The notes beneath the pieces were generated by a model. The model was not told where the DNA came from. It was given only the letters and a program-made list of their open reading frames with translations, and made no database searches. This document shows, in pieces, positions 318 to 55,565 of a stretch of 64,000 nucleotides of DNA. This DNA is from Alistipes sp. UBA934. Lineage in GTDB: Bacteria > Bacteroidota > Bacteroidia > Bacteroidales > Rikenellaceae. The stretch spans positions 311,654 to 375,653 of the forward strand of contig DBDK01000008.1 of assembly GCA_002293535.1 (NCBI GenBank), in the 5' to 3' direction. A program made the translations under genes and the position numbers. The number at the start of each line of letters is the position of its first letter. Position 1 is the stretch's first letter.

Positions 318-2108
318 ATGAAAAATTTCGACGGCTGGCTTCCTACATCCGCCAAAGAGGTCGCGGCACTGGGGTGGGACGCGGTGGATGTGATCCTCGT
401 TTCGGGCGACGCATATATCGACCACCCCTCTTTCGGTATCGCGGTGATAGCAAGATTGCTTGAAGCCGAGGGATTTAGGGTCGCCGTCATTCCTCAACCG
501 AACTGGCAGGACGATCTGCGCGACTTCAAAAAGCTAGGTGCGCCGCGACTTTTCTTCGGCGTGTCGGCCGGTGCGATGGACTCGATGATGAACCACTATA
601 CCGCCGCGAAACGCCTCCGTAGCGACGATGCTTACACTCCCTCAAGCAAAGCCGGCCGCCGACCCGACCGCGCTGCAACCATCTACAGCCGCATTTTGAA
701 GCAACTTTACCCTCACACGCCGGTCGTGTTGGGTGGCATCGAGGCGTCGCTGAGGCGTCTGACGCATTATGACTACTGGGACGATGCGCTCAGGCCTTCT
801 ATTTTGGTCGATAGCGGCGCCGACATTGTGGCCTATGGAATGGGCGAAGTGTCGATAGTCAAGATTGCAAAAGCACTGCGTAATGGATTCAACACCAATT
901 TGTTACACCAACTGCCTCAGGTTGCTTTTCTGGCCGATAAAGCGTACGTCGAGCGGCTCGAAGCCGCAAAAAACGACCATTTTTGGGGTCGTTTTTTGCG
1001 GTTGAATTCTTATGAGGAGTGCCGCGCCGACAAGCGAAAATTCGCAGAAAATTTCACGCGGATCGAGACGGAATCGAATCTGCTACATCCCTCGCACACC
1101 CTCGTGGAACCCATCGGCGCAGATAGATTAAGCGGTGATAATCAATATGTTGTAGTTACGTCGCCACACCCCGTGATGACCTCCGAGCAACTCGACAGGG
1201 CGTTCGATCTGCCCTACAAACGCGCTCCGCATCCACGCTACGACGGCAAGGGAGACATACCCGCCTGGGAGATGATCCGCAACTCAATTACCTCACACAG
1301 AGGCTGTTTCGGCGGCTGTAGTTTCTGCACGATATCGGCACATCAGGGAAAATTCATAACATCCCGAAGCGAGGCGTCTATCCTCCGTGAGGTGCAACAC
1401 GTCGTCTCGATGCCCTACTTCAAGGGTTACATATCCGACCTCGGCGGCCCGTCGGCAAATATGTATAGTCTTGGTGGAAAGGATATTACGCTGTGCGAAA
1501 AGTGCCGACGACCCAGCTGTCTGACCCCAAAACCCTGCCCCAATCTCGACCGAAATCACGACCGTTTGCTGAACCTGTACGCCCTTGCAAAAAATGTCAA
1601 AAAATTTGACACTCCGATCAAGAAAATCTTCATCGGCAGCGGAATTCGGTACGATCTGTTCGGTCGGAACGCCGACAGCGGCAGCAACTCAGGCGCCGAA
1701 TATCTCCGTGAGGTAATTCTCAACCACACCTCGGGCCGCCTGAAAGTCGCCCCCGAACACACCGAAGATCACGTGTTGCGACTGATGAGAAAACCAGCCT
1801 GGGCCGAGTTCGAAAAACTCAACGCCGACTTCAGAAAAATCTGCGAAAACCAGGGACTGAAAACCCAACTCATCCCCTATTTCGTGTCGAGCCACCCCGG
1901 TTGCACCGAGCACGATATGCAGCAACTGGCCCAAAAGACCCGCCGACTGAAGCTGCATACCGAGCAGGTGCAAGACCTTACCCCCACGCCGATGACACTC
2001 GCCTCCGTGATGTTCTACACCGGCGAAGATCCATATACCGGCGAAAAACTGTATGTCGCCCGAACAACCGAAGAAAAGAGAAGGCAGAAGGGGTGGTTCT
2101 TCAGATAA
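318..2108 (+). CDS. ygiQ: YgiQ-family radical SAM protein (UPF0313)
   Basis: 596 aa. The N-terminus WLPTSAKEVAALGWDAVDVILVSGDAYIDHPSFG and the radical-SAM cluster motif CFGGCSFC are characteristic of YgiQ. Confidence 0.92.
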   Translation: MKNFDGWLPTSAKEVAALGWDAVDVILVSGDAYIDHPSFGIAVIARLLEAEGFRVAVIPQPNWQDDLRDFKKLGAPRLFFGVSAGAMDSMMNHYTAAKRLRSDDAYTPSSKAGRRPDRAATIYSRILKQLYPHTPVVLGGIEASLRRLTHYDYWDDALRPSILVDSGADIVAYGMGEVSIVKIAKALRNGFNTNLLHQLPQVAFLADKAYVERLEAAKNDHFWGRFLRLNSYEECRADKRKFAENFTRIETESNLLHPSHTLVEPIGADRLSGDNQYVVVTSPHPVMTSEQLDRAFDLPYKRAPHPRYDGKGDIPAWEMIRNSITSHRGCFGGCSFCTISAHQGKFITSRSEASILREVQHVVSMPYFKGYISDLGGPSANMYSLGGKDITLCEKCRRPSCLTPKPCPNLDRNHDRLLNLYALAKNVKKFDTPIKKIFIGSGIRYDLFGRNADSGSNSGAEYLREVILNHTSGRLKVAPEHTEDHVLRLMRKPAWAEFEKLNADFRKICENQGLKTQLIPYFVSSHPGCTEHDMQQLAQKTRRLKLHTEQVQDLTPTPMTLASVMFYTGEDPYTGEKLYVARTTEEKRRQKGWFFR

Positions 2109-2184
2109 TTCACTAATGGATAAAAATTTGAAAATGTCAAACAAAGTAGTAACTTTGGCCGTGACAGAACTAATCTACATAGTT

Positions 2185-3270
2185 ATGAAAAAGAAAAATT
2201 TAGCCTTTATATGTCCATTAAGCAAACCAGATTCTCCTACAAGAAGAAGGTCTGATGGTATTATGGAAAGTGTACTTAGTCCAATAGCTGAAGAACTTGG
2301 CTATGAAGTCTTCAGAGCAGATAAGTTGCACGGCAAGCATATTATGGATGACATTATTAAAATGCTGTATAACGCTGATATAGTCGTGGCTGATTTATCA
2401 GATTTGAATGTAAATGTATTTTACGAACTAGGGCTCTATCACGCAATAAAAGGAAAATTTATAACCATAAAAGACACCTTAAAGGACGTACCCTTTGATG
2501 CCACATATTTTAGGGTTTATGAATATAATAGTGGCATACCTGGAGATCTTTTCAAGTTTCAGGAAAATATTAAAGAGGCTATAAAAAATTTGGAAGCCGA
2601 AAAATGGTGCCCTTGTTTTTCTTTTGAACCTCGCCATCTGTCAGATTTTTTTGGTGGCACTGTCGTAATCGAATCTATCACCGGTAAAAAGGAACATTAT
2701 GATCTAGCCCAAAAATTGCTAGATAATGGGAAATGTAAGAGAATTTTTCTTATGCAACGAAGTAGTTCGTTAATTTTGGGAGCTGAACAGGGTTGGGGCG
2801 AAGAAGCAAAATTTATTAATATCTTAAAAAAATTGATAAGCGATTGTGATTATTTCTATCATCTTGTTACGTTAGAGGGAATTGAGGCGCATTTCCTACG
2901 ACAAAACAGCATATTCCCAAAATTTAAGGATTTCCAGAAAAATTTAGTGAATATCGATGGCAAAGTGGCATTAAGAAAAAACATCGACAGTCAAGACTAT
3001 TTTCTTTTAAAAAAGCTTCCATTAGACAATTCCGATGAATTTTTTAAATTGGACAGACAGGCCAGAGTGCTTGTTGTCGAATTTGAAGATGGCAATATCG
3101 AAGCAGTTATCGTCCAAAATTTAGGACCAGAACAATATAGTTTCCATTTAAGAGGGAGAGAATTAGAGGGTTATATATCAAATTGTACAAAATATTACGA
3201 CGAATGCGAATACGTAAGTTGGCGCGATCTCACAAATCTTTATAAAAAATACCAAAGCTTACAGAAATAA
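2185..3270 (+). CDS. Hypothetical protein: N-terminal nucleoside 2-deoxyribosyltransferase/TIR-like (flavodoxin-like fold) domain plus unknown C-terminal domain
   Basis: The ORF is open from 2053. Alternative ATG starts lie at 2116, 2134 and 2185, and 2185 (MKKKNLAFICPLS...) begins directly with the first beta-strand. The motif NADIVVADLSDLNVNVFYELGLYHAIKGKFI resembles the aDlvvA....n.G..fElGyA.alGKp core of the NDT/TIR-like superfamily. The gene is strongly AT-rich relative to both flanks. Confidence 0.75.
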   Translation: MKKKNLAFICPLSKPDSPTRRRSDGIMESVLSPIAEELGYEVFRADKLHGKHIMDDIIKMLYNADIVVADLSDLNVNVFYELGLYHAIKGKFITIKDTLKDVPFDATYFRVYEYNSGIPGDLFKFQENIKEAIKNLEAEKWCPCFSFEPRHLSDFFGGTVVIESITGKKEHYDLAQKLLDNGKCKRIFLMQRSSSLILGAEQGWGEEAKFINILKKLISDCDYFYHLVTLEGIEAHFLRQNSIFPKFKDFQKNLVNIDGKVALRKNIDSQDYFLLKKLPLDNSDEFFKLDRQARVLVVEFEDGNIEAVIVQNLGPEQYSFHLRGRELEGYISNCTKYYDECEYVSWRDLTNLYKKYQSLQK

Positions 3271-3276
3271 ATAAAG

Positions 3277-4716
3277 ATGGCAAAAACCTACAGTCCGGCG
3301 CAGCGAAACAGAGAAACCTACGAGAAGATGCTCGAAGAAGGAGGGCTCGTGCCGCCACAAGCAGTGGAGTTGGAGGAGGCAATATTAGGAGCCCTGATGC
3401 TGGAAAAAGACAGCATAATCGCTGTGCAAGAATACCTTACGGCCGACGCATTCTACAAGGAAACACACAGGACGATATTCAAAGCGATAGAGCAACTCTC
3501 GGCCGAACTGAGCCCCATAGACCTGTATACGGTGACGGAAAGGTTGAAGAGAGACGGCAAACTGAAAGCCGTTGGGGGAGCGACTTTTTTGGCCGAACTT
3601 ACGCAACGAGTGGGATCGGCAGCACACGTGGAATATCACTCCAAGATCATAGCCCAAAAGTACGTCCAAAGGGAGTTGATCCGCGCCTCGACCGAAATTC
3701 AAAAGCGATCATACGACGAAAGCACCGACGTAACCGACCTGATAGATTACGCAGAAAATGAGATCTATCACGTCTCCGAAGGACATATGCAGAGGGCGGT
3801 ACAGTCCTCCGGTGACATCCTGCGGCGAACGATGGAAGCGATCGAGGAGGCATCCAAAAGCGACGGCCTGTTTAACGGCGTACCATCAGGTTTTGCAGGC
3901 ATCGACCGTGTGACGCTGGGCTGGCAACCGAGTGACCTTGTGATAGTTGCGGCCAGGCCTTCGATGGGGAAAACAGCATTCACGCTCTCGATGGCGCGAA
4001 ACGTGGCGATCGACCATAACACACCGGTGGCATTTTTCTCGCTCGAAATGAGTTCAACACAGCTAATGATGCGTCTGATCGTGGCGGAGTCGGGGTTGGA
4101 TGGTAAAGACGTGAAAACCGGCAAGTTAAGTCCTGAACAGTGGCGCCATCTGGAGGACTCGATAAAGCCGCTACAGACCGCTCCGATGTACATAGACGAC
4201 ACTCCGGCATTGTCGGTCTTCGAGTTCCGTTCAAAGGCGCGACGCCTCAAAACGCAACACGACATAAAGCTGATAGTGATCGACTATCTGCAGCTTATGA
4301 CCGGCTCGCAAGACGTGCGAGGCAATCGAGAGCAGGAAGTGGCAGGCATTTCGCGCACACTGAAGGCCATAGCAAAAGAACTGAACGTTCCCATAATCGC
4401 CCTCTCGCAGCTGAACCGTGCGGCGGAACTTCGCGGAGGAAGCAAAAAACCCCAACTAAGTGACCTCAGGGAGTCCGGCGCAATCGAACAAGATGCTGAT
4501 ATTGTGGCATTTATACATCGACCTGAGTATTTCGGAATGAAGGTAGATGAGGACAACCTGCCGCTGCCTCCGGGCCTGGCGGAGTTCATAATCGCCAAGC
4601 ACAGAAACGGCGCAACCGACACGGTGAGGCTGAAGTTCCGAAAGGAGCAGGCACGGTTCCTCGACTTCGACGACGACTTCGAGATCGCCGAAAGCTCGAT
4701 AGGTTCACCATTCTAA
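3277..4716 (+). CDS. dnaB: Replicative DNA helicase DnaB
   Basis: 479 aa. It has the N-terminal PPQAVELEEAILGALML motif, Walker A ARPSMGKTAF, and LRESGAIEQDADIV. Confidence 0.97.
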   Translation: MAKTYSPAQRNRETYEKMLEEGGLVPPQAVELEEAILGALMLEKDSIIAVQEYLTADAFYKETHRTIFKAIEQLSAELSPIDLYTVTERLKRDGKLKAVGGATFLAELTQRVGSAAHVEYHSKIIAQKYVQRELIRASTEIQKRSYDESTDVTDLIDYAENEIYHVSEGHMQRAVQSSGDILRRTMEAIEEASKSDGLFNGVPSGFAGIDRVTLGWQPSDLVIVAARPSMGKTAFTLSMARNVAIDHNTPVAFFSLEMSSTQLMMRLIVAESGLDGKDVKTGKLSPEQWRHLEDSIKPLQTAPMYIDDTPALSVFEFRSKARRLKTQHDIKLIVIDYLQLMTGSQDVRGNREQEVAGISRTLKAIAKELNVPIIALSQLNRAAELRGGSKKPQLSDLRESGAIEQDADIVAFIHRPEYFGMKVDEDNLPLPPGLAEFIIAKHRNGATDTVRLKFRKEQARFLDFDDDFEIAESSIGSPF

Positions 4717-22693: not shown

Positions 22694-23383
22694 TTATTTT
22701 CGGTTCAGTATGAATTTGACCGAGATGTTATAGGTGATGGTAATTTCCTGCATATCGATGCCTTGTTCGGCTGTTCCGGCGGCATAAACCGAATCCATCG
22801 CCATCTCCGCTTTGGCATAGCGCACCATCGGCATCGGCGACGATTCGTAATAGCCATTGTCGAAGATCCACACGGCATTCCCTATGCTTTGACCCACAGC
22901 TTCGGCGATAACGGTGGCCGTCTGCTTGGCATCCTTAACAGCAGCAATGCGAACCTCTTTTCGGAACTCATCTATCTTGGAATGAGACACTTTCGTCACG
23001 CCTGCCTGCGTCACTCCCATCTCTCCCAGCAGCTCGAATACCGAACCCAAAATCCACGTATCACCGACTTTCAACTCATAAGAACGTCGGGTATCTGCAT
23101 CGGTCTTTTTGCGCGGTGCTATATTCTGGCTGGTGACCTTCAGCGCGCTGGCAACGTCTATGCCCATAGCCTGAAGTTCGCTTTTGAGACGGGACTCCAA
23201 TTGATTGACCGTCTGCCCCTTCGTATCACCATCCCGAAGTGTGATCGCCACATAGATTTCGTCCGGCGTTACCTTTTTTTCTGCTTTTCCGTTCACCTGA
23301 ATAGCATCTTCGTAATGATACCCTGAGAGGTCTTGCGCCCCTGCTACGGAGACGAGCAAAATCGCCGCCGCCATCAAAATCAT
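22694..23383 (-). CDS. SIMPL (DUF541) domain periplasmic protein
   Basis: The start was chosen at MILMAAAILLVSVAGAQ, a signal peptide. The ORF is open up to 23470. Confidence 0.75.
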   Translation of the reverse strand: MILMAAAILLVSVAGAQDLSGYHYEDAIQVNGKAEKKVTPDEIYVAITLRDGDTKGQTVNQLESRLKSELQAMGIDVASALKVTSQNIAPRKKTDADTRRSYELKVGDTWILGSVFELLGEMGVTQAGVTKVSHSKIDEFRKEVRIAAVKDAKQTATVIAEAVGQSIGNAVWIFDNGYYESSPMPMVRYAKAEMAMDSVYAAGTAEQGIDMQEITITYNISVKFILNRK

Positions 23384-23466
23384 CTTTTTAACTGCGCTAC
23401 GCTTGTTTTCCTCCTTCGTGCTTCGGCAATCCGTGCAAGCACGATTGCTCTCTTCTTGTCGTCGGT

Positions 23467-24906
23467 TCATACCTTAATTTTTTTAAGTTTAACAACATTT
23501 TCAACGTGGTGCGTGTGCGGAAACATATCGACCGGCTGCACTGCGGCCAGAGCATATTCACTGGCCATCAGCGCAATGTCCCTGGCTTGAGTAGCCGGAT
23601 TGCAACTCACATAAACTATCGCTTCAGGAGCTGCACGCAGGATCACTTCGATTACCGGAGCATCGACCCCTGCCCGTGGCGGGTCTAAAATAACAACGTC
23701 GGGATGGCCGTTTTCGTGTATGAAGTCGTCGGTCAGCACACGCCGCATATCGCCGGCAAAAAATGTGGTGTTGGCGATTCCGTTCAACGCCGAATTCTCA
23801 CGCGCATCCTCTATGGCCTCTTCAACATATTCTATGCCAACAACTTTGCCAGCTTCCCGCGCCACAAAATTCGCAATCGTTCCCGTGCCGGTATAAAGGT
23901 CATAGACGGTTTCGGTGCCGGATAGATCAGCGAGTTCGCGAGCCACCTTGTAGAGCTCATACGCCTGCTCGGAGTTGGTTTGGTAGAACGACTTGGGTCC
24001 TATTTTGAAGCGAAGACCTTCCATCTGCTCGAAAATGTGGTCACGACCGGCAAAAAGTTTCGGGGTCTGGTCGCCCAAAGAGTCGTTCAGCTTAGTGTTT
24101 ACGATGTATTGCAGAGACGTGATTTCGGGAAAAAACTCTTTCAGGTGGTTCATAAGTGCCGCAATCCTCTCACAATCGGGCTGAGCAAAGACCACAATGA
24201 CCATAACCTCTCCGGTCGAAGCGGTGCGAACAACCACATTACGCATCAGCCCCTCGTGCGCCCGAATATCGTAGAACGAATAACCGTGCTCGATGCAAAA
24301 ACGCTTGATCTCCAGTCTGATGGCATTCGACGGATCGGGTTGCAACCAGCACTTATTAATATCCAGCACCTTATCGAACATACCGGGAACGTGGAATCCC
24401 AGCGCCGGTCGGAACGCCGACTGCGATTTATTTTCGTCCCCGCGCTCCCGATCCGCTTGAAACTCTTCTCGTGTCACCCATCTGCGCGGCGCAAAGGTAA
24501 ACTCCAGCTTGTTGCGATAGAACCGCGTGTTCGCGGAACCGATAATCGATTTAATTTCAGGTAGCTCCAAATGGCCTATGCGAGTGAGCTGATCCACCAC
24601 CTGCTGCTGCTTTTGCCGGAGTTGCTCCTCATAAGGCAAATTCTGCCAGCTACAACCGCCACAAACACCGAAATGTTCACAAAAAGGCTCGACACGAAGA
24701 GGAGAAGGGCGAACGAGGCGCAAAATGTACGCCTCCATAAACCGCCGCCGTTTGCTACGCACCTGAACATCGACCATATCCCCCGGCACGGCCCCCGGAA
24801 CAAACACCACAACACCGTCCCAATGACCCATTGCCTTCCCTTCGGCGGCCAACGCCGTAATCTCCAACCCCTCTATGACGGGATTCTCCTTGTGCCTTTT
24901 ACCCAT
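23467..24906 (-). CDS. rlmD: 23S rRNA (uracil-C5)-methyltransferase RlmD/RumA
   Basis: The start is at MGKRHKENPVIEGLEI (ATG 24904-24906), followed by a TRAM domain, the Fe-S motif CEHFGVCGGCSWQ and a C-terminal SAM methyltransferase domain. The 867-aa ORF in the track is an artefactual upstream extension. Confidence 0.92.
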   Translation of the reverse strand: MGKRHKENPVIEGLEITALAAEGKAMGHWDGVVVFVPGAVPGDMVDVQVRSKRRRFMEAYILRLVRPSPLRVEPFCEHFGVCGGCSWQNLPYEEQLRQKQQQVVDQLTRIGHLELPEIKSIIGSANTRFYRNKLEFTFAPRRWVTREEFQADRERGDENKSQSAFRPALGFHVPGMFDKVLDINKCWLQPDPSNAIRLEIKRFCIEHGYSFYDIRAHEGLMRNVVVRTASTGEVMVIVVFAQPDCERIAALMNHLKEFFPEITSLQYIVNTKLNDSLGDQTPKLFAGRDHIFEQMEGLRFKIGPKSFYQTNSEQAYELYKVARELADLSGTETVYDLYTGTGTIANFVAREAGKVVGIEYVEEAIEDARENSALNGIANTTFFAGDMRRVLTDDFIHENGHPDVVILDPPRAGVDAPVIEVILRAAPEAIVYVSCNPATQARDIALMASEYALAAVQPVDMFPHTHHVENVVKLKKIKV

Positions 24907-24956
24907 AAAAATTGCCGTTTCAGCAACACAAAGATAGGAAATTTCGCGCAATTTCT

Positions 24957-24964
24957 TAAATTTG
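24957..24964 (+). promoter_or_regulatory. -7 box TAAATTTG upstream of the oxidoreductase operon
   Basis: Matches TAnnTTTG and lies 9 nt upstream of the ATG at 24973. Confidence 0.4.
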
Positions 24965-24972
24965 CAAACACT

Positions 24973-26061
24973 ATGCTCAACATTGGTATTATCGGCTTCG
25001 GACGTATGGGCCAAAAGTTCTGTAAAGAGCTTTTGGTCAGTCCTATGTGGAATGTGACGCACATTTGCGACCCCAGCCCGGAAGCCCGCAGGACGGCAGC
25101 AAAGATGGTGCCGGACGCTTTGATCACATTCGACGAAGATGTTATTTTCGCCGACCCGTCGGTGGATGTAGTCGGTCTTTTCGCCCTTGCCGACTCCCGC
25201 CCCGAACAGATTAGTAAAGGGCTGGCTGCCGGCAAACACCTGCTGCTCGAAAAACCCGTCGCCGAGACCATCGAAGCCGAGTGGGATGTCGTGCGAATGG
25301 TGGAGAGCTCCGATCGGATGGTGGCGGTGAATATGTTCAACCGTTCGGCGTGGTACCACAAGGTAATTATGGATTTCATCCGCGAAGGCCAGATCGGAGA
25401 GCTGGCCATTGTTCGCATCTGCCATATGACTCCCGGCCATATGCCTCAGGAGGGGCACGGTCCCGAAGGCCCTGCGTTCCACGACTGCGGAATGCACTAT
25501 GTGGATGCCGCCAGGATGTATGCCGGCAGCGAATATAAGACTTTTCACGCACAGGGTATCCGTATGTGGAGCCACACCGACCCGTGGTGGGTTCAGGTGC
25601 ACGGGACTTTCGACAACGGCGTCGTGTTCGATATCACGCAAGGTTTTGTTTACGGCCATATGGCTGAGCAACAGACCCATAACTGCTATGTAGACATTAT
25701 TGGTACAAAGGGTATCGCCAGAATGACGCACGATTTCAAAAATGCTACTGTCGAACTGCACGGCACCGGACGTACCGAAAAGATCGTTAAAGAGTTCGGT
25801 GACAAGAAGATAGACGTATTGGTGGATGTTTTTGCCCGTTCGATCATTGCCGGCCGTAATTTGGGTTTTCCTCAGGTGCGTGACAGTGTAGTGGCTTCTG
25901 AAATGGCGTGGAGGATGCTTGACGATGCGGTCGCCAACGGCTCGCCGTGCATCGGTCGTGTGGAAGATATGGATGAGATTATGACCCGCCGCCGTACTCT
26001 GAGTAACGGTTACAGCCTTCCGGTTTGGAAGATACTCGACGAAAAAACCGACAAAAGATGA
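24973..26061 (+). CDS. Gfo/Idh/MocA-family oxidoreductase
   Basis: The start is at MLNIGIIGFGRMGQKF, a Rossmann motif. The protein is 362 aa. Confidence 0.88.
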   Translation: MLNIGIIGFGRMGQKFCKELLVSPMWNVTHICDPSPEARRTAAKMVPDALITFDEDVIFADPSVDVVGLFALADSRPEQISKGLAAGKHLLLEKPVAETIEAEWDVVRMVESSDRMVAVNMFNRSAWYHKVIMDFIREGQIGELAIVRICHMTPGHMPQEGHGPEGPAFHDCGMHYVDAARMYAGSEYKTFHAQGIRMWSHTDPWWVQVHGTFDNGVVFDITQGFVYGHMAEQQTHNCYVDIIGTKGIARMTHDFKNATVELHGTGRTEKIVKEFGDKKIDVLVDVFARSIIAGRNLGFPQVRDSVVASEMAWRMLDDAVANGSPCIGRVEDMDEIMTRRRTLSNGYSLPVWKILDEKTDKR

Positions 26062-26708
26062 ACATCGCAAAATTCACATTCAATCCCATAGCCGAAAACA
26101 CCTACCTTATCTGGGACGAAACCGGGGAGGCAGCCATTATTGACGCAGGCAACTCCTCGCCCGCCGAAAATCGTGCACTGGATAATTTCATCACCGAAAA
26201 AGGGCTCAAACCTGTACTTGCACTGGGCACCCACGGCCACTTCGACCACACGATGGGAATGCCACATATTAAAGGTGCATACGGGGTGCCGTTTGCGGTG
26301 CATTCCGACGACAGTTTTTTGCTCGAAAATTCCGTTCCCAGCGCAGCGATCTTCGGCGTTAAGGTTGAGGAGCTCCCCGCCATAGACATCGACCTTTCCT
26401 CTCTGCCCGAAATATCGTTCGGCAACACCACTCTTCAGATTATTCCCACTCCTGGGCATACTCCGGGTCACGTCTGCTTTTTCGAACCACAGAGCCGCGT
26501 CGTCTTCACCGGAGATACTCTTTTTGCCGACACTATCGGGCGTACCGACCTTCCGGGGGGCGACTACAGCTGGATAATGAAGAGCATAATCGAAAATCTT
26601 CTCCCACTGGGGGATGACGTGAAAGTCTATCCCGGCCACGGTCGCGACACCACAATCGGTCAGGAGGCTGCAGGCAATCCTTTCATAACAGAAGTACTCG
26701 AAGGATGA
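26058..26708 (+). CDS. MBL-fold metallo-hydrolase (glyoxalase II-like)
   Basis: The start is at MNIAKFTFNPIAENTYLIWD, with an ATGA overlap to the upstream gene. The metal motif is HGHFDH. Confidence 0.88.
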   Translation: MNIAKFTFNPIAENTYLIWDETGEAAIIDAGNSSPAENRALDNFITEKGLKPVLALGTHGHFDHTMGMPHIKGAYGVPFAVHSDDSFLLENSVPSAAIFGVKVEELPAIDIDLSSLPEISFGNTTLQIIPTPGHTPGHVCFFEPQSRVVFTGDTLFADTIGRTDLPGGDYSWIMKSIIENLLPLGDDVKVYPGHGRDTTIGQEAAGNPFITEVLEG

Positions 26709-27487
26709 GCCTGTCGGTCGCCATAAAGAAATTCCTTTATCGACATCTGTCGCTGGAGCGCTACCTGGGCGTGTTGAGTTGGGGATTTTTCGCGGGTCTG
26801 CGATTAGGGCTTGGCAAGCGCTCTGCTGCTTACGAATATCCTCTCTATTTGCAACATCTTGTACGCCAAGGCGATGTGGCCATCGACATAGGAGCCAATC
26901 TCGGTTACTACTCTCGCATTCTATCCCGTCTCGTCGGAGAGGGCGGTAAGGTCTATTCAGTCGAACCCGTCAAACCTATCCTCGGTGTGTTGGAGCACAA
27001 CCTGCGTCGCTGCACCAATGTCGAGATCGTTCCCTTTGCTCTTGGGACTGAGGACAAACCGATACTGATGGTGAACGATTCAGCCTGCCTGGCGGGGTAT
27101 ATGGGCACGGGAAGGAATTGCGTTGCCGAACCGGAGCTACTTCCCTCCGAATCTGCCGACGGCGGCGAGCTTGAGTTCGAAGCCCAGATGCGGCGCGGAA
27201 GTGAACTTTTCGGACGACTGCAAAGACTTGACTTCATAAAATGCGACGTGGAGGGATACGAGAACGTGGTTATTCCCGAGCTCGCTCCCGTAATTGAAAA
27301 ACATTTGCCAATCGTATTGCTCGAAACCGGCGGCCCCGCTCGCCAAAAAATGATCGAGTTGTTCCGCGGTTGGGGTTACGCGGGTTATGTTTTACAGGAT
27401 GGTAAACTTGTGTCGGTTATGCGCGGGCCCGAAAAAGATATTGTATTCATTCCCGGCCATCGCCATAAAGACTTCCTGCAACGATGA
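26705..27487 (+). CDS. FkbM-family methyltransferase
   Basis: 260 aa with the motifs [10 protein letters not shown] and IKCDVEGYE. Confidence 0.85.
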
Positions 27488-28158
27488 GAATCGACATTCT
27501 GAGCGTTGTGCCTGAGCTTCTCGTGTCGCCTCTAAACGAGTCGATCCTCAAGCGTGCGCAGCAGTCGGGCCTTGTCGAGATCGTGATTCACAATCCTCGC
27601 GACTACACCACCGACCGCCATCGTCAGGTGGACGACTATCCGTTCGGCGGCGAGGCGGGTATGGTGCTCAAACCCGAACCGATCGGGAGCCTGATCGACC
27701 ATCTGTGTAGCGAGCGCTCCTACGACGAGATTATCTACACCTCACCCGACGGCATTACTCTCAACCAACACGAAGCCAACCGACTCTCCACGCTTGGTAA
27801 CATTATTATTCTTTGCGGCCACTACAAGGGTCTCGACCAGCGCATTCGCGACACTTACATTACACGCGAGATATCCATCGGTGACTATGTTCTTACGGGT
27901 GGTGAGCTTGCCGCGGCTGTGATCGTCGATAGCGTCGTTCGCATCATTCCGGGGGCGATCGGCGACGGAGAAAGTGCCCTCACCGATTGCTTTCAGGACG
28001 ATATGCTCGCCCCTCCTGTCTACACTCGTCCGGCAGAGTGGCGCGGAATGAAAGTTCCGGATGTTCTTCTCTCCGGTAATCCCGTTTTGATCCGGCAGTG
28101 GCAACAGGAACAATCACTGGAACGCACCGAACGCCTAAGACCCGACCTGCTCAAATGA
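27484..28158 (+). CDS. trmD: tRNA (guanine37-N1)-methyltransferase
   Basis: 224 aa with the motifs [11 protein letters not shown] and [11 protein letters not shown]. Confidence 0.96.
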
Positions 28159-28814
28159 AAATTATCTGCATAGCAAAGAATTACCGTGCCCACATAGACG
28201 AGATGAGGACGATGGTCGAATTGGGCGGCGGTGGCAACGGCCACGGCGATTTCAGTGTCGCGCCCAAAAGCCTTTCATTCTTCCTGAAGCCCGACACGGC
28301 GCTTCTACGCAACGGTGACCCGTTTTACATTCCCGACTTCTCTGCACAGGTAGATTACGAGTGCGAGCTCGTGGTACGCATTAACCGCGTCGGTCGGGCC
28401 ATTGCTCAAAAGTTCGCCCACCGCTATTACGACGAGGTAGGGTTGGGAATTGATTTTACCGCTCGCGACCTCCAGCGGGAAGCCATCGCTGCAGGTCTGC
28501 CGTGGGAGGCATCCAAGGCATTCGACCGGTCGGCTGCGCTTTCGCCCATATTTCTGAAACTCGCCGATTTGGGTGATGTACAAAATCTGCATTTCGAAAT
28601 GGCACTGGGTGGCGTTGTAAAGCAACAAGGCTTCACTGGCGATATGATTTTCACTGTGGATCAGATCATTGCACACGTCTCGCGCTTTGTCACTCTGAAG
28701 ATGGGCGACCTTATATATACAGGTACACCCGTCGGCGTTGGCTCGGTTTGTGCAGGTGATCATCTCACTGCTTCACTTGAGGGGCACGGGTTGCTTGATT
28801 TTCAGATCAGATGA
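28155..28814 (+). CDS. Fumarylacetoacetate hydrolase family protein
   Basis: The start is at [17 protein letters not shown], with an ATGA overlap to trmD. It also has ECELVVRI and [13 protein letters not shown]. Confidence 0.88.
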
Positions 28815-29398
28815 CCGACCGCCAACTCATACTTGCTTCCGGTTCGCCTCGGCGCCGTCAGATTCTTGCAGATGCAGGATTGGAGTTCTCTATCGCCGAA
28901 CATTATCACGTCAAGGAGAGTTGGCCTGCGGAAATGCCTGCCGAACAGGTTGCAGAATATCTCGCCGCGCTTAAATCCGATGCCTATCCAAAACTATTGG
29001 GAAACAACGACATACTCCTCACCGCTGACACAACCGTAGTTCTGGATAACGAGCTTCTCGGAAAACCACACGACACACAAGAAGCCAAAAGGATGCTACG
29101 AAAACTCTCCGGCAGAGTACACAAGGTCATTACCGGGGTGGTGTTGAGAACCGGCAGGGATGGATCGGGCCTCGAAAAACGTGAAAGTTTCAGCGCCGAG
29201 ACGCTCGTCTGGTTTCGCCAACTGACACCACAAGAGATTGATTATTACGTTGATACATTTCAGCCTCTCGACAAAGCCGGCGCTTATGGTATTCAGGAAT
29301 GGATCGGCTATGTGGGCATCTCACGGATCGAGGGTTCGTTCTACAACGTGATGGGCCTGCCCATACAAATGATCTACACCAAACTCAACGACTTATGA
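28811..29398 (+). CDS. maf: Maf-family nucleoside triphosphate pyrophosphatase
   Basis: 195 aa with the motifs LASGSPRRRQIL and KAGAYGIQE. Confidence 0.94.
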   Translation: MTDRQLILASGSPRRRQILADAGLEFSIAEHYHVKESWPAEMPAEQVAEYLAALKSDAYPKLLGNNDILLTADTTVVLDNELLGKPHDTQEAKRMLRKLSGRVHKVITGVVLRTGRDGSGLEKRESFSAETLVWFRQLTPQEIDYYVDTFQPLDKAGAYGIQEWIGYVGISRIEGSFYNVMGLPIQMIYTKLNDL

Positions 29399-31101
29399 AA
29401 AAACTTACGATACTTATTTTAGCGCTCACAGGCGCATTGACAGCGCGCGCCGATGAGGGTCTTTGGCTCCCTTACCAGATCGAAAGCCAAGTCAAAGATA
29501 TGCGCTCCAAGGGTTTTCGCCTCTCCGCGGACGACCTTTACAGCGTCAATAAACCCTCTCTGAGCGATGCCGTTGTGCTGTTCGGCGGTGGTTGTACGGG
29601 GGCGATCGTCTCCTCCGAAGGCCTGCTGCTTACCAATCACCACTGCGGTTTCGATCACATTGCCGATCACAGCACCCTTGAGCACGACTACCTTAAAAAC
29701 GGTTTTTGGGCTATGTCACAATCTGAAGAGCTGCCCAACCCCGACCTCGAAGTGCGCATCCTTGTACGAATGGAGAACGTGACAGATGCCGTCGATGCCG
29801 GCCAGCGACAGGTAATCCTTGAGCGTGCCACCGAAAACGGACGCTATAGGGCTGACATTAAGCCACTTTATTACGGTAATGAGCATTGGCTGTGGGTCTA
29901 TGAAGTCTTCACCGACGTGAGGCTCGTTGCAGCTCCACCCTCGGCGATCGGTAAGTTCGGCGGCGACACCGACAACTGGATGTGGCCTCGTCACACGGGC
30001 GATTTCTCGGTCTTCCGCATCTATGCCGACCGTAACAACCGCCCCGCAAACTTCTCGCCCGACAATGTACCCTATCGTCCCAAAAAGTTCTTCACCATCT
30101 CCACCGAGGGCTTGCAAGAAGGCGATTTCACATTCGTTTACGGTTTTCCGGGTACGACTCGCCAGTATGTCACATCAGACGAAGTGAAATATGTGGTCGA
30201 ACGCTCCAACCCGATGAAAATTCACGTCCGCACCCAGCGCCTCGCCGGTATCAAAGCGCTGATGGACAATAGTACCGCCGAGCGCATTGCCCTTGCATCA
30301 TTGCAGTCATCCATAGCTAACGGTTGGAAAAAGTGGCAAGGTGAGAGTTGGGGCCTTCAGCGTCGCAGAACAATCGCCCGCAAGCAGATTTATGAGGAGC
30401 GCTTCCGCCACTGGGCTGCCTCCCGACCCGAATATGCACGCTTGTTGGACAGTCTCGCAACAGCATACTCCCACGCCTCCGATCGACTGTTTTGGGGCGA
30501 ACTTCAGAACGAATCCACGGGCCTTGTGCGCTTCCCCGGTACCTTTAACTACGTCCCTGATGTGGTTCGCTGGTACACCCCATATATGAAAGCCCTGCGC
30601 GAATTCGACCCGGATCGCCGCTTCTATCCCGATGCAAACCTCACACTCAGAATCTCTTACGGAGCGATTGCGGGTTATCACGACGAGAACGACATTTGGC
30701 ATACTCCCTTTACCGACCTCGACGGAGTTATGGCAAAAGACAACCCCGATATTTACGATTACGACATACCGACGCGTCTGCGCGAACTCTTTGCCGAACA
30801 AGATTATGGACGTTGGGCTATCGCCACATCCTGTGGCCACAAGACCGTTCCCGTGTGCTTCCTGGCCTCGAACCACACCGCAGGAGGAAACTCCGGTAGT
30901 CCGGTTTTAAACGGTCACGGCCAAATCATCGGGTTGAACTTCGACCGCACGTGGCTCAGCACGATGAGCGATCTTGAGTTCGACGGTGAGTTTTGCCGCA
31001 ACATTTCGGTCGATATTCGCTATGTGATGTTCGTCATCGAGAAAGTGGGTGGCGCCGGATGGCTCACCCGTGAGATGACGTTTTCCAGGAGTAGGAACTG
31101 A
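29395..31101 (+). CDS. S46-family serine peptidase (dipeptidyl-peptidase 7/11-like)
   Basis: The start is at MKKLTILILALTGALTARADEGLWLP. The catalytic His motif is TNHHCG and the catalytic Ser motif is GGNSGSPVLN. Confidence 0.9.
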   Translation: MKKLTILILALTGALTARADEGLWLPYQIESQVKDMRSKGFRLSADDLYSVNKPSLSDAVVLFGGGCTGAIVSSEGLLLTNHHCGFDHIADHSTLEHDYLKNGFWAMSQSEELPNPDLEVRILVRMENVTDAVDAGQRQVILERATENGRYRADIKPLYYGNEHWLWVYEVFTDVRLVAAPPSAIGKFGGDTDNWMWPRHTGDFSVFRIYADRNNRPANFSPDNVPYRPKKFFTISTEGLQEGDFTFVYGFPGTTRQYVTSDEVKYVVERSNPMKIHVRTQRLAGIKALMDNSTAERIALASLQSSIANGWKKWQGESWGLQRRRTIARKQIYEERFRHWAASRPEYARLLDSLATAYSHASDRLFWGELQNESTGLVRFPGTFNYVPDVVRWYTPYMKALREFDPDRRFYPDANLTLRISYGAIAGYHDENDIWHTPFTDLDGVMAKDNPDIYDYDIPTRLRELFAEQDYGRWAIATSCGHKTVPVCFLASNHTAGGNSGSPVLNGHGQIIGLNFDRTWLSTMSDLEFDGEFCRNISVDIRYVMFVIEKVGGAGWLTREMTFSRSRN

Positions 31102-31103
31102 GA

Positions 31104-31126
31104 TAATCCCCCCCCGACAGGGATTA
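31104..31126. terminator. Possible bidirectional hairpin between convergent genes
   Basis: taatccc (31104-31110) pairs with gggatta (31120-31126) across a 9-nt loop. The stem is short and there is no clear U-tract. Confidence 0.3.
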
Positions 31127-31453: not shown

Positions 31454-31510
31454 CTCTCTTTTAGGTTACTTAAGGGAATTACAACTGCAAAGGTAATAAT
31501 ATCTTTTTAA

Positions 31511-51988: not shown

Positions 51989-52468
51989 ATGGTGCAAGTA
52001 GATAGCATCGCTAATTATGTAAGTGAGAATTTGTCCAGCACAAACGAAATGGCAGAGTCCATAATTCCAATATCCGACAAGATTACTCCCCTATTATGGC
52101 TACTGATAGCCAATATTGTAATTATCATTGCAAAATTTGTTACGGACAGTCGATTAAAGAAAAAAGATGTAAATGTTCACAGAAAAGGGTTGATAAATGA
52201 GTTCATAATAAACATCGAAAAGGAATTGTTTTATAGATTGGAAACATTATCTCGATTTGATGCCGATCAAACGGACGAGTTATTAGTTGAAATTTTAAAC
52301 ATCGAAACTTATTGTAGAATAAATAGAATTTTTTTACGAAAGAACGTCAGCAATGTAGCTATTAAAATATTGGACTACTACAAGGCTGTCTCTTCCAATT
52401 ATGCAAAAAAGGATATTAAGAAAGAAAATGAACTAATGGCTAAATACTCAGACAAGTTTTATGAATAA
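51989..52468 (+). CDS. Small membrane-anchored hypothetical protein (cassette gene A)
   Basis: 159 aa with a single hydrophobic helix (ITPLLWLLIANIVIIIAKFV) and no recognisable domain. It overlaps gene B by 8 nt (ATGAATAA). It is very AT-rich. Confidence 0.7.
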   Translation: MVQVDSIANYVSENLSSTNEMAESIIPISDKITPLLWLLIANIVIIIAKFVTDSRLKKKDVNVHRKGLINEFIINIEKELFYRLETLSRFDADQTDELLVEILNIETYCRINRIFLRKNVSNVAIKILDYYKAVSSNYAKKDIKKENELMAKYSDKFYE

Positions 52469-53408
52469 CCAATCTAATAAAATTACATTTCCCAGTCACA
52501 TAACAACAAATTCAATTTTGTCGTTAATACGGGCAATGAGTTTTGTTTTCAAGCTGAAGGATAGGATGGCGGCGAATTATGTTGTAGACATTTCTAACGT
52601 TAAAGAGATAAATATGTTAGGAGTGCTATTATTATGTAAATTTCTTGAATTTTCTATTTCACATAGATGCTTTTCGGAACCCCAATTAGGAATAAATGAT
52701 ATTGTTAAGGAGGCTATTGCAAAATATGGTTGTTTGTCCTTAGTACAATCCTTTATGAATCCCAAAGGAGACAATAGAAAAGAACTTGAATCGCTAAAGA
52801 CAAAAATACAAGACAATTTTATCATTGCCCCTAAGGCCCTATTACGGAATGATAGTTACTCTAAAGAATCACTCAACACAGATTATTTACCTGCAATTAA
52901 TGATTATTATAGTAATACTATTAAGGCGAGTGATATGATCTTACAGGTATTTTCAGAAATATTGTTGAATTTTTGGGAGCACGCAGTGGATGACACCCGT
53001 TCAATAATTATCGCTCACGGGACAAAAACAAATATCGAAATAGCCTGTATAGATACTGGGAATGGAATAAAGACCACACTTAGTGAAAACGTTAAGTTAA
53101 AAAAGAGTGAAAAATCAGACATCCTATTGTCCAAAGCTGTCCAAAAGGGCGTAACATCAAAAACGAATACAGATCATATGGGTTTTGGTCTATGGATTGT
53201 AGATGAGATAGTATCAAAGGTAGGAGGAAGATTGCGCCTTATTTCGGAAAGTTCTGCATATATAAATGATTCCGGAAAAAAGACTACCACAGGTTGCGAT
53301 TATTGGGGCGGTACTATAATTTATGTATATTTGCCATTAGAGAATCCTGTCACAATAGCTGATATTGAAAAAGGGAAGCAATTAAACGCAAAAATTTGTT
53401 GGATATGA
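52461..53408 (+). CDS. STAS-like N-terminal domain fused to a GHKL (HATPase_c) ATPase/kinase-like domain (cassette gene B)
   Basis: 315 aa. The N-terminal part (VVDISNVKEINMLGVLLLCKFLEF) is STAS-like. The Bergerat-fold motifs are the N-box EILLNFWEHA, G1 IDTGNGI and G2 MGFGLWIV. Confidence 0.75.
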   Translation: MNNQSNKITFPSHITTNSILSLIRAMSFVFKLKDRMAANYVVDISNVKEINMLGVLLLCKFLEFSISHRCFSEPQLGINDIVKEAIAKYGCLSLVQSFMNPKGDNRKELESLKTKIQDNFIIAPKALLRNDSYSKESLNTDYLPAINDYYSNTIKASDMILQVFSEILLNFWEHAVDDTRSIIIAHGTKTNIEIACIDTGNGIKTTLSENVKLKKSEKSDILLSKAVQKGVTSKTNTDHMGFGLWIVDEIVSKVGGRLRLISESSAYINDSGKKTTTGCDYWGGTIIYVYLPLENPVTIADIEKGKQLNAKICWI

Positions 53409-53704
53409 GAACAATAGAATTGAAAAAATATGCTCCGATAATAAGTGATAAGGAAATAGGAGCAGAAATCTTAGGGGAGATTAAAACGGTCCTCAATAGC
53501 GACAATGGTGTGATTATCGATATGCAGGATATTCGCTCTATGGCTACGTTTTGCGCGAAGCAAATCTTTGGTGCTCTATATGTAGAGATGGGTTCTGAGG
53601 ATTTTTTTAATAAAATACGTATAAAGTCCGCAACGGATGATGTTAAATACATCATCAATCTTGGAATAGAAAAAGCATTGGAAGACAATTCATTCCATCT
53701 CTAA
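53405..53704 (+). CDS. DUF4325-type STAS-like protein (cassette gene C)
   Basis: The ATG at 53405 overlaps the stop of gene B (ATGA). The protein is 99 aa, and NGVIIDMQDIRSMATFCAKQIFGALY resembles DUF4325. Confidence 0.7.
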   Translation: MRTIELKKYAPIISDKEIGAEILGEIKTVLNSDNGVIIDMQDIRSMATFCAKQIFGALYVEMGSEDFFNKIRIKSATDDVKYIINLGIEKALEDNSFHL

Positions 53705-54186: not shown

Positions 54187-55443
54187 TTACGACTCCAACA
54201 GCCACTTCCAGACGGGGATCACTTCAATAGTTTTACCTTCAACCTCCAACATCCGCTCGGTGTCGCGGGTTATGATCACGAGCCGACGGCATTCCAATAC
54301 ATCGGAAATTTTGGCCAGTGCCTTCATCTCGCGATCCAACGTTCCGTCGGCATTGTCAAGATTGTAGCACACCTGAATTGCGGTATAGTTATCGGGGATA
54401 TAGAAATCGACCTCGATATTGTGGTTGTAAAAATATACGGCATCCTCCCGCCCGTATTTACGCAACAGGGTTACGGCGACAAGATTTTCCAAAAGAGAGG
54501 TCTCACCACCCATCAAAAAGAGATTCAGAATGCCATTGTCCGTGTAATAGTATTTTTGCGAGCTCTCCTTGTCGACCAACTTACTCGCTATGTTTTGCAC
54601 GGGAGAAATGAGCCACGCATCTTTGGCGTACTCCATATAGTTAATCACCGTCTGTGTCCCGATCTTCGCGCCGGTCGATGATATGATGTTTGCTATTCGG
54701 GTAAACGATAAAGGTTGCTTTATGCTTTCGGCCAACTTTTTGAACATCACTCGCAGGGCGAAGGTGTTCTCTATATTGTTACGTGCAGCGATATCACCCA
54801 AGTAGATTTTTTGATAGGTGCTGGTCAGGTAGTCGCGCTTTACTGCAAGCGAGGCTCCTTCGGGGAATCCGCCGAAATAGAAGTAGTCATTGAATTTCCG
54901 CAGCACTTCGGCACGTCCCTCCGTGGAGATTAAATCCACGGGCGTGTCGTTCGCCGTCAAAAACTCTTTGAACGAATAAGGATAAACATCGGCGGTTATA
55001 TAGCGGCTACCGAGCGTAGTTTGAATCTCCTTGCTCAACATTTTTGCGTTGCTTCCCGTTATGTAAACCCTGTGCTTGGTGTCGGCCATCCGGCGGGCAA
55101 ACTTCTCCCAGCCGGTGATGTTCTGTATCTCGTCGAGAAAAAGCATAGGCTTCTTTCCATACATCTCCAAGTGCACCTCCAACAACAGGTTCAGATCTGC
55201 GGCGGTCATTCCGGTAAGGCGTTCGTCCTCAAAGTTTATGTATAGCATCTCGTCCCAACCGGTACCCCCTGCGAGAAGCTGCTGCATCCTTTGGTAGAGC
55301 AGAAACGACTTTCCGGCCCGCCTGATGCCGACAAAGACGTAATTGCCGAATTCCTCGAAAGTGAAGTCTCGGGGAACAACGTTGAACTTAGGAACTTCCG
55401 CCTGATTGTCTGCAATGACCGATTTTAAGATTTCTCTGTCCAT
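54187..55443 (-). CDS. AAA_14 ATPase with C-terminal DUF4143 domain
   Basis: The start is at MDREILKSVI (ATG 55441-55443). It has Walker A GIRRAGKS and Walker B MLFLDEIQ, followed by a DUF4143-like C-terminal half. Confidence 0.85.
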   Translation of the reverse strand: MDREILKSVIADNQAEVPKFNVVPRDFTFEEFGNYVFVGIRRAGKSFLLYQRMQQLLAGGTGWDEMLYINFEDERLTGMTAADLNLLLEVHLEMYGKKPMLFLDEIQNITGWEKFARRMADTKHRVYITGSNAKMLSKEIQTTLGSRYITADVYPYSFKEFLTANDTPVDLISTEGRAEVLRKFNDYFYFGGFPEGASLAVKRDYLTSTYQKIYLGDIAARNNIENTFALRVMFKKLAESIKQPLSFTRIANIISSTGAKIGTQTVINYMEYAKDAWLISPVQNIASKLVDKESSQKYYYTDNGILNLFLMGGETSLLENLVAVTLLRKYGREDAVYFYNHNIEVDFYIPDNYTAIQVCYNLDNADGTLDREMKALAKISDVLECRRLVIITRDTERMLEVEGKTIEVIPVWKWLLES

Positions 55444-55471
55444 AACCTCCCGTTTTATTTTATCGACAAAA

Positions 55472-55479
55472 CAAAGATA
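55472..55479 (-). promoter_or_regulatory. -7 box TATCTTTG upstream of the AAA_14 gene
   Basis: The reverse complement of caaagata. It lies 29 nt upstream of the ATG. Confidence 0.4.
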
Positions 55480-55565
55480 ATGCATTTTTGTTTTACCGAC
55501 AAAACAATATTGAATTATTTTTGTTTTGTAGGTAGAACATGCTTAATAGAGTCACATAGATATGC

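Follow-up and report, generated by a model that had tools for sequence, protein, structure and literature searches.

A horizontally acquired gene between ygiQ and dnaB of Alistipes sp. UBA934 joins an NDT/DNPH1-like domain to a rare, predicted PLD-like sensing module

Introduction

The ygiQ and dnaB genes of Alistipes sp. UBA934 (GenBank assembly GCA_002293535.1) are separated by an AT-rich stretch holding a single open reading frame (ORF), which raises the question of how this gene came to stand at a core locus and what its product does there. We analysed it within a window of 64,000 nucleotides (contig DBDK01000008.1, positions 311,654 to 375,653 of the forward strand); coordinates given without another record are those of the window. 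An initial annotation, made from the sequence and its translations, had proposed a stand-alone sensor-effector defence gene acquired horizontally, and this interpretation was supported by each computational test that could be run. The gene is a horizontal acquisition, and its product combines an N-terminal domain of the nucleoside 2-deoxyribosyltransferase (NDT)/DNPH1 type with a rare C-terminal domain (hereafter C domain) that recurs behind several other kinds of effector. Our favoured reading, towards which the evidence leans moderately, is that of a stand-alone sensor-effector of abortive-infection-type anti-phage defence.

A foreign gene in place of a short spacer

One uninterrupted ORF occupies the gap between ygiQ and dnaB, as had been annotated. 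Its frame lies on the + strand and stays open from 2053 to the stop codon at 3268-3270, and the motifs 'KNLAFICPLS' and NADIVVADLSDLNVNVFYELGLYHAIKGKFITI are both present in the translation. The annotated start, ATG 2116, is in frame and possible, as are ATG 2134, ATG 2185 and GTG 2161. However, about 150 homologues begin to align near residue 24 of the 384-aa translation made from ATG 2116, so that translation likely begins at ATG 2185 ('MKKKNLAF', 361 aa), and residues are numbered from there. Depending on the start, the gene begins 7-76 bp past the ygiQ stop codon. An identical protein (P0001), called from GTG 2161, is encoded between the same neighbours on a 428-kb termite-gut metagenome contig.

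Composition and codon usage agreed with the annotated estimate of about one-third G+C between flanks above one half. The G+C fraction is 0.34-0.35 in each 300-bp window from 2101 to 3300 and 0.50-0.59 in both flanks; over the whole insert it is 0.341, against a mean of 0.522 (standard deviation 0.044) for windows of equal size (z = -4.1). At third codon positions, the gene has a G+C fraction of 0.30, compared with 0.50-0.69 in the 20 other ORFs of the window.

Comparison of the junction among relatives revealed that the site is normally empty. DnaB is 84-90% identical to that of six metagenome-assembled genomes of Alistipes sp., and ygiQ and dnaB are neighbours in six related loci, where they are separated by 19 bp (L053), 41 bp (L013), 46 bp (L014), 118 bp (L017), 203 bp (L015) and 471 bp (L018). 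All but the last are the five closest relatives keeping the junction (DnaB 73-90% identical; gaps of 19-203 bp), and the gene is missing in all 49 related DnaB-anchored loci. The insert is thus a horizontally acquired gene at a core locus. As the annotation had stated of integrase and repeats, neither was found at the insert, nor was a tRNA target, an inverted repeat or a target-site duplication, and the junction alignments show short repeats at chance level.

The base composition of the homologues also differs from that of the host DNA in most loci (0.29 versus 0.44, 0.51 versus 0.64, 0.31 versus 0.47), which points to repeated horizontal transfer. Their contexts are unrelated to one another: transposase fragments, an integrase, a BrnA antitoxin gene with kdp genes, tRNA-synthetase genes and, in the window, a core operon.

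No terminator-like site was found on the + strand from ygiQ through the insert to dnaB, in a promoter and terminator scan whose output was at chance level and which used a sigma-70 consensus ill-suited to Bacteroidota. The insert is therefore probably co-transcribed with ygiQ and dnaB, which would couple its expression to that of the essential dnaB.

An N-terminal domain of the NDT/DNPH1 type

The N-terminal domain, for which an NDT/TIR-like fold had been annotated, was modelled with AlphaFold2 (predicted local distance difference test, pLDDT, 91.9; predicted template modelling score, pTM, 0.80). The model has the flavodoxin-like three-layer alpha/beta fold of NDT and DNPH1 enzymes. Its best Foldseek match is a cyanobacterial NDT (8qc0, E 3.6e-5, template modelling score (TM-score) on the target 0.64); DNPH1 structures (9ia6, 8os9) reach TM-scores on the target of 0.65-0.75, and the NDT and DNPH1 matches together range in E from 3.6e-5 to 1e-3. 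TIR-STING and TIR structures rank below them, so that within the annotated assignment the domain lies closer to NDT and DNPH1 than to canonical TIR.

Sequence comparison led to the same enzymes. As a single sequence, the protein reached DNPH1 in the PDB at E~1, whereas the family profile matched it at E 1.4e-3, with 'ADlviADLt..npnvfYELG' over ADVVVAEVTQPSLGVGYELG corresponding to the catalytic-Glu motif. The acidic 'ElG' signature picked out by eye is the 'YELG' of this motif; its Glu81, the predicted catalytic nucleophile, is kept in 66 of the 67 family members, and Asp70 and Arg44 in all 67.

Searched directly against Pfam, the domain matched PF05014 at E 0.028 with 15 bits, under the gathering cutoff of 28.8. 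Because of this score, it is by sequence a divergent member of the NDT/DNPH1 superfamily and not, by the Pfam threshold, a member of the PF05014 family. Among the 67 family members, PF05014 matches 38 at E<=1 (best 1.8e-5), PF10137 (TIR) matches four at E >= 0.051 and PF13271 (DUF4062) one at E 0.17. The inserted gene's product has no match in NCBIfam; it matches the CBASS-type 'Effector TIR' model of PADLOC (PDLC00733, E 1.4e-8), and its N-terminal domain matches phrog_3634, an uncharacterised phage family (E 1.5e-30).

A plasmid-borne relative provides a link to a defence effector. Over 117 aa, Glu motif included, the domain is 37% identical (E 7e-16) to a ThsI-like protein that joins an NDT domain to a TPR domain (locus L173). 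ThsI, a 'CMP hydrolase' + TPR effector of type VIII Thoeris, is reported to defend and to respond to cyclic ADP-ribose (bioRxiv 10.64898/2025.12.03.692087). Sequence and predicted structure place the domain on the NDT/DNPH1 side of the TIR-NDT assemblage; it shares ancestry with the enzymatic module of a described defence effector. Its substrate would be NAD+ or a nucleotide, a choice that the sequence does not decide; an NDT-like retron effector depletes adenine derivatives (10.1101/2023.08.16.553469).

The plasmid carrying the ThsI-like gene is pKGB1a of Klebsiella variicola (record 23152-31553), a conjugative IncF plasmid. There the NDT+TPR gene stands directly before a TIR gene and beside a TIR and DUF4231 (SLATT) pair, a layout that matches type VIII and type VII Thoeris side by side, with a recombinase and a Tn3 transposase nearby.

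Relatives consisting of the N-terminal domain and little else are often carried as accessory genes by plasmids and by temperate phages of Staphylococcus, Streptococcus and Klebsiella, and 243 matches to the domain were found in viral contigs. The phage proteins have 219-288 aa and variable tails (for example L063 9971-10630 and L112 9935-10801, the latter between repressor and integrase); they match 'Effector TIR' of PADLOC but no complete PADLOC system. A Salinibacter plasmid match (H1) that seemed to span part of the C domain was rejected as an N-terminal-domain protein with an unrelated tail.

This abundance in phages and plasmids, together with the phrog_3634 match and the homologue that adjoins a BrnA-type antitoxin gene, would suit an element that is selfish or offensive, for instance an addiction toxin or a counter-defence enzyme of a mobile element or phage that destroys an immune signal such as a nucleotide or ADP-ribose derivative. 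However, the full two-domain protein was found in no viral contig, phage genome or plasmid record, no antitoxin-like partner recurs, and prophage accessory genes of this kind are usually defence genes themselves. We therefore regard a selfish role as very improbable.

A rare C-terminal domain with a PLD-like fold

The C domain is the most conserved part of the protein. No significant match to it was found by sequence or profile in Pfam, NCBIfam, PADLOC, PHROG or the PDB, and an exhaustive profile search of 1.84 billion (1.84e9) representative proteins yielded 98 cluster representatives. Within the NDT+C family, the invariant positions are L189-M-Q-R-S193, L198, E201, E207, F210, H226, G232, H236, F244, D290-R-Q-x-R294, G314, F320 and G324. 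Conservation also extends beyond this family: Q191 is invariant, and S194 and H226 near-invariant, across all domain architectures described below, and the 'DRQAR' motif is common to the variants with transmembrane helices also. A 3134-aa surface protein with Big_3/Ig repeats (P0137), which scored E 3e-54 through 22 weak repeated stretches, was judged an artefact of repeats and composition and not a homologue.

The annotation had found no nameable domain in these roughly 230 residues and had suggested a sensor. The first part did not hold: a separate model of the C domain (pLDDT 88.8, pTM 0.86) revealed a PLD-like fold. Its first Foldseek matches are the pseudo-PLD domains of FAM83A/B (probability 0.97-1.0, E 3.5e-3 to 2.5e-2, TM-score 0.44-0.58), followed by PLD3, PLD4 and PLD1; among viral models (BFVD) it matches the PPK C1 domain (probability 1.0) and a poxvirus F13-like lipase (probability 0.75). 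One protein of a sister family gives a weak match (E 1.2e-4) to MkoB, the PLD nuclease of Mokosh, across the stretch that is homologous. The motif HxK(x)4D(x)6G(S/T)xN is absent on inspection of the C-domain alignments, and no PLDc Pfam match was obtained; 'QAR(x)4E' (residues 292-299) is possibly a degenerate vestige of it. From the model we conclude, with moderate confidence, that the C domain has a PLD-like fold without a PLD active site.

The fold also allows the roles to be reversed. The C domain could itself be the killer, as a divergent phosphodiesterase, nuclease or lipid-headgroup enzyme of a two-enzyme toxin, with the N-terminal domains as regulators or second catalytic modules. The PLD-superfamily fold and the MkoB match are in keeping with this; the invariant His, Arg, Ser, Glu and Asp residues could make an active site, and proteins consisting of the C domain alone or with transmembrane helices exist that have no recognisable enzyme. 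Against it stand the missing HxK(x)4D motif, the catalytically dead nature of the FAM83 pseudo-PLD domains that match best, and the N-terminal partners, which are all well-known effector types and keep the catalytic Glu in most NDT+C proteins, the opposite of what is expected of regulators. A PLD-type toxin appears improbable to us on this balance.

One C domain behind exchangeable effectors

The 98 clusters were sorted with local hidden Markov models, hydropathy, BLAST and Pfam scans, and precomputed Pfam annotations (Table 1). Over all architectures, the core signature reads Y..Q-x-[ST]-S..L-G..E..H; a database search with the corresponding core alignment (A6) gave no match.

Table 1. N-terminal modules found with the C domain
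N-terminal module	Portion of C domain	Clusters	Remarks
NDT-like	full	23	the inserted gene's own family
Cap12/Pycsar-type TIR (PF10137)	full	at least 7	P0148, P0151, P0158-P0162
DUF4062 (PF13271)	full	at least 3	P0123, P0134, P0156
one to three transmembrane helices	full or near-full	14	
none, or fragments	variable	about 40	
TIR (P0196), DUF4062-like (P0209 and relatives), cytidine deaminase (P0193), NDT-like without Glu (P0194, P0202)	first half only		more distant set

Because one constant domain stands behind NADase, glycosidase, deaminase and membrane modules, the swapping marks the C domain as a putative regulatory or sensor module that drives exchangeable effectors; on this point, the annotated suggestion of a sensor gained support. 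A constant sensor behind rotating effectors is the pattern of the signal-sensing domains in CBASS, Pycsar and Thoeris effectors. As the trigger, a conserved small ligand seems likelier than a fast-evolving phage protein, given how strictly the small polar pocket, as predicted, is conserved.

Of the C domain, the sister family (P0193, P0194, P0202, P0206) has just the first half ('LCQRT[ST]T.LL.PE...H'), to which a different tail of about 200 aa is joined. Its N-terminal module is either a cytidine deaminase, as in P0193, or NDT-like with the catalytic Glu lost ('VSYGLAV', 'VFYKLAV'). One DUF4062+C gene (P0134; L176 4825-5901, L177 1105-2181) is a solitary insertion with an alcohol dehydrogenase gene on one side and the rpsF-ssb-rpsR block on the other.

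Neighbourhoods of the NDT+C genes

No neighbour family recurs among 18 NDT+C loci, save for housekeeping synteny between two related genomes, which bears out the annotated lack of partner genes. No TIR neighbour recurs among these loci, and no nucleotide cyclase or CD-NTase was found in any homologue context. About a dozen of the 134 neighbour ORFs match PADLOC models at E<=1e-8. They include a 998-aa SIR2 protein 1.3 kb downstream of the homologue in L007, PDC-S15 near the homologue in L147 and PDC-S50 directly adjoining that in L158; ThsB-like, PDC-M13A/B, PDC-S66, PDC-M10A and PDC-S23 matches were also obtained, without being placed at specific loci. The NDT+C gene thus behaves as a self-contained mobile chromosomal accessory gene whose association with defence islands is partial and not consistent.

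Association with isoprenoid enzymes

A second kind of neighbour links the C domain to isoprenoid diphosphates. In all three TIR+C clusters with readable context (P0151, P0160, P0161), the TIR+C gene is followed by a gene of the PF01255 cis-prenyltransferase family, which overlaps it by 4 bp in L175 and L182 and lies 20 bp downstream in L180. In this conserved two-gene unit (L175 183-1990, L180 2552-4289, L182 570-2359), the TIR+C proteins are about 35% identical to one another, and the DNA has G+C fractions of 0.42, 0.49 and 0.62. The prenyltransferase-like partners form a family of their own (34% mutually identical, E 3e-43), distant from cyclolavandulyl-diphosphate synthase (E 2e-19) and from UPPS (E 1e-16), and retain the motifs 'IPDGxRRWA' and 'RTGxxxRLSNFxPxQxxYAE'. 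The literature searched yielded no account of a prenyltransferase tied to TIR-based defence, nor any description of the TIR+C/prenyltransferase unit. Directly upstream of the pair in L180, a ThsB-type TIR gene is followed by a caspase-like Peptidase_C14 gene (1022-2430), which suggests that this region is a small defence island.

Within the NDT+C family, the link takes the form of two independent fusions. In two clusters that share less than 50% identity, an Idi-type isopentenyl-diphosphate isomerase (NUDIX) is joined to the N-terminus, so that Idi, NDT-like and C domains form single polypeptides of 554 aa (L169, 321..1985) and 538 aa (P0140). That P0140 might be a swap of NUDIX for the effector domain was rejected, as its sequence comprises Idi and the complete NDT+C architecture and the second fusion (L169) agrees. 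In addition, one NDT+C member is convergent with uppS, and a polyprenyl synthase lies within 3 kb in three loci. Overall, an isoprenoid-diphosphate enzyme occurs in 8 of 50 C-domain loci (372 kb) versus 0 of 129 controls (49 DnaB loci, 601 kb; 80 viral loci, 1.1 Mb), a tally whose queries were drawn from the C-domain loci themselves and in which L009 and L159 are not independent.

The simplest reading of this association, judged from gene content, would be that a prenyl diphosphate, or some product derived from it, is the ligand of the PLD-like domain. Going further, the C domain may be a receptor for an isoprenoid diphosphate or derivative, NDT-, TIR-, DUF4062- and transmembrane-type immune effectors being switched by an isoprenoid signal and not by a nucleotide; this is a tentative proposal that we find possible though rather doubtful. 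The cis-prenyltransferase-like partner of the TIR+C proteins would then be the signal synthase, in the role of a CD-NTase, and the isomerase of the Idi fusions would supply dimethylallyl diphosphate. Solitary copies, such as that of the window, would monitor the cell's own pool of isoprenoids or cell-wall carrier, or eavesdrop on a synthase encoded elsewhere.

The link to isoprenoid enzymes could instead reflect a metabolic role, in prenylated-nucleotide (cytokinin-like) or nucleoside-antibiotic-type pathways. As a bifunctional enzyme, the protein would bind or transfer a prenyl diphosphate with its C domain and free the modified base from the nucleotide with its NDT/DNPH1/LOG-like domain. Such a role would account for the two Idi fusions, the cis-prenyltransferase-like operon partner and the UppS and polyprenyl synthase neighbours; moreover, DNPH1/Rcl, the nearest solved folds, were crystallised with N6-substituted AMP analogues (4kxn, 4kxl), and CMP-hydrolase relatives work in nucleoside biosynthesis. 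We nevertheless think a metabolic role unlikely, as the C domain is also fused to Cap12-type TIR, to DUF4062 (a defence NADase family) and to bare transmembrane helices, which are unfit for biosynthesis. Besides, the gene is solitary, patchy, compositionally foreign and at times in defence islands, and no biosynthetic cluster surrounds any copy examined.

Other features of the window

The insert is not the sole AT-rich island of the window. A second one (G+C about 0.32) contains three small co-directional ORFs, of which the 315-aa one has GHKL-ATPase-like motifs ('GNGI', 'GFGLWIV'); none of the three matches a PADLOC model. The neighbouring 432-aa ATPase matches the candidate defence family PDC-S01 (E 1.7e-95), and this island may be another acquired cassette of defence type. 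The features of both islands and the genes that flank the insert are listed in Table 2.

Table 2. Features of the window
Feature	Position	Strand	Basis
Upstream core gene, YgiQ-family radical SAM protein (Radical_SAM_N + DUF3362)	318..2108	+	61-77% identical orthologues adjoin dnaB in relatives
AT-rich insert in place of the short ygiQ-dnaB spacer	2109..3276	.	G+C 0.34 versus 0.52; empty sites in relatives
Inserted gene	2185..3270	+	ORF and translation; 361 aa; alternative starts 2116, 2134, GTG 2161
NDT/DNPH1-like (TIR-related) N-glycosidase domain, predicted, residues 1-137	2185..2595	+	AlphaFold2, Foldseek, profiles
Glu81 codon in 'FYELG', predicted catalytic nucleophile	2425..2427	+	conserved in 66 of 67; aligned with the Glu of DNPH1 and ThsI-like protein
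Rare PLD-like-fold domain, residues ~149-361, predicted ligand-sensing/regulatory module	2629..3267	+	model, Foldseek
'QRSSS' loop (Q191-S195), core signature of the C domain	2755..2769	+	conservation; Q191, R192 and S193 invariant in the NDT+C family
'H226...G232...H236' motif of the C domain	2860..2892	+	invariant in 67 of 67
'DRQAR' motif (D290-R294), second half of the C domain	3052..3066	+	D290, R291, Q292 and R294 invariant in 67 of 67
Downstream core gene dnaB	3277..4716	+	begins 6 bp past the stop codon of the insert
Second AT-rich island	~51.3-53.7 kb		G+C about 0.32
First ORF of the second island	51989..52468	+	
Second ORF of the second island	52461..53408	+	
Third ORF of the second island	53396..53704	+	
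432-aa ATPase beside the second island	54187..55485	-	PDC-S01 match

Discussion

In the stand-alone sensor-effector that we favour, the NDT/DNPH1-like domain would be the effector. Through Glu81 it would break an N-glycosidic bond in a nucleotide-type metabolite that is abundant in the cell, be it NAD+, a (deoxy)nucleoside monophosphate or a derivative, and the resulting depletion would starve the infected cell. The PLD-like domain would keep the effector inactive until infection brings forth or alters a phosphate-bearing ligand that binds to it. A predicted polar pocket formed by Y172, Q191, S193/S194, E207 and H226, to which R192, H236 and D290-R-Q-x-R294 are added in the NDT+C family, may receive this ligand. 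Since isoprenoid-diphosphate enzymes recur as fusion or operon partners of the C domain's relatives, the ligand is possibly an isoprenoid diphosphate or derivative.

Several observations weigh against this reading. First, the window copy lies among housekeeping genes, outside any defence island and probably on the ygiQ-dnaB transcript; the defence signal among neighbours of the homologues is partial, the DinG, TatD/QatD and AAA/IetA matches being generic, and the full-length protein matches no complete PADLOC system. Secondly, defence, enzymatic activity and ligand binding of the NDT+C family are predictions from sequence and models: the N-terminal domain scores below the Pfam cutoff, and the PLD-like assignment is based on modest TM-scores (0.44-0.58) at a root-mean-square deviation of 6-7 Å and on one weak match of a sister protein to MkoB. 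Thirdly, an invariant polar pocket is compatible with catalysis as much as with binding. As for an isoprenoid ligand, the tally has the bias described above, and no isoprenoid enzyme is encoded within the 64-kb window.

Among the closest known systems is type VIII Thoeris. Like ThsI, the inserted protein joins an NDT-family glycosidase effector to a C-terminal sensing domain, both of them predicted in its case, and the enzymatic domains are homologous, 'ADIVVAD..N.N..YELG..HA' being kept in the ThsI-like protein of L173. Unlike ThsI, it has a PLD-like C-terminal module in place of TPR and is solitary, with no adjacent TIR gene producing a signal.

A similar economy is found in Swarozyc, a single, horizontally spread gene encoding a DUF4062 TIR-like NADase with a catalytic Glu and an AUX sensor, a winged-helix/HTH fold that binds the phage portal (bioRxiv 10.64898/2026.05.01.722283). 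Both combine, in one gene, an N-terminal glycosidase of the TIR/NDT superfamily with a C-terminal auxiliary sensor, putative in our case, and DUF4062 is also fused to the present C domain (P0134). However, the N-terminal domain of the insert is NDT/DNPH1-like and not DUF4062, and its C domain is an alpha/beta PLD-like fold; identity of the C domain with AUX was rejected, given the winged-helix fold of the latter.

With CBASS and Pycsar effectors (Cap12 TIR-SAVED, PycTIR, PycTM), the family shares the scheme of one, here predicted, ligand-sensing domain combined with interchangeable TIR-like or transmembrane effectors, as well as the 'Effector TIR' match, and with retron Ec86 it shares an NDT-like effector, which in the retron depletes adenine derivatives. 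In contrast to these systems, the insert is accompanied by no cyclase, reverse transcriptase or other signal-generating partner, and its putative sensing domain is none of SAVED, STING, cNMP-binding or SLOG. DNPH1/Rcl and the nucleoside 2-deoxyribosyltransferases (PF05014) provide the best fold matches and an aligned catalytic-Glu motif, but they act on their own in housekeeping or salvage and have no C-terminal domain, and the insert falls below their Pfam threshold. Likewise, the C domain resembles the PLD superfamily (FAM83 DUF1669 pseudo-PLD, PLD3/4, PPK C1, MkoB) at the level of the fold, with a weak sequence link through the sister protein, and differs from it in forming one module, marked by a signature of its own (Y..Q-x-[ST]-S..LG..E..H), and in having neither an HKD motif nor a PLDc match.

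The window offers a clean natural 'knock-in', a foreign gene standing 6 bp before dnaB with empty sites in sister genomes, in which the acquisition of such genes in the absence of visible mobility machinery can conveniently be studied. Single-protein sensor-effectors with a TIR/NDT-type glycosidase are a fast-growing class (Swarozyc, ThsI, DSR-like systems), to which the NDT+C family would add a new sensing module. This C domain, for which Pfam, PADLOC and NCBIfam hold no model, is common to at least five effector types and, as far as the libraries and literature searched show, is undescribed. Should the association with isoprenoid enzymes mirror the nature of the ligand, bacterial immunity would have its first hint of a cue or messenger that is isoprenoid-based and not a nucleotide.

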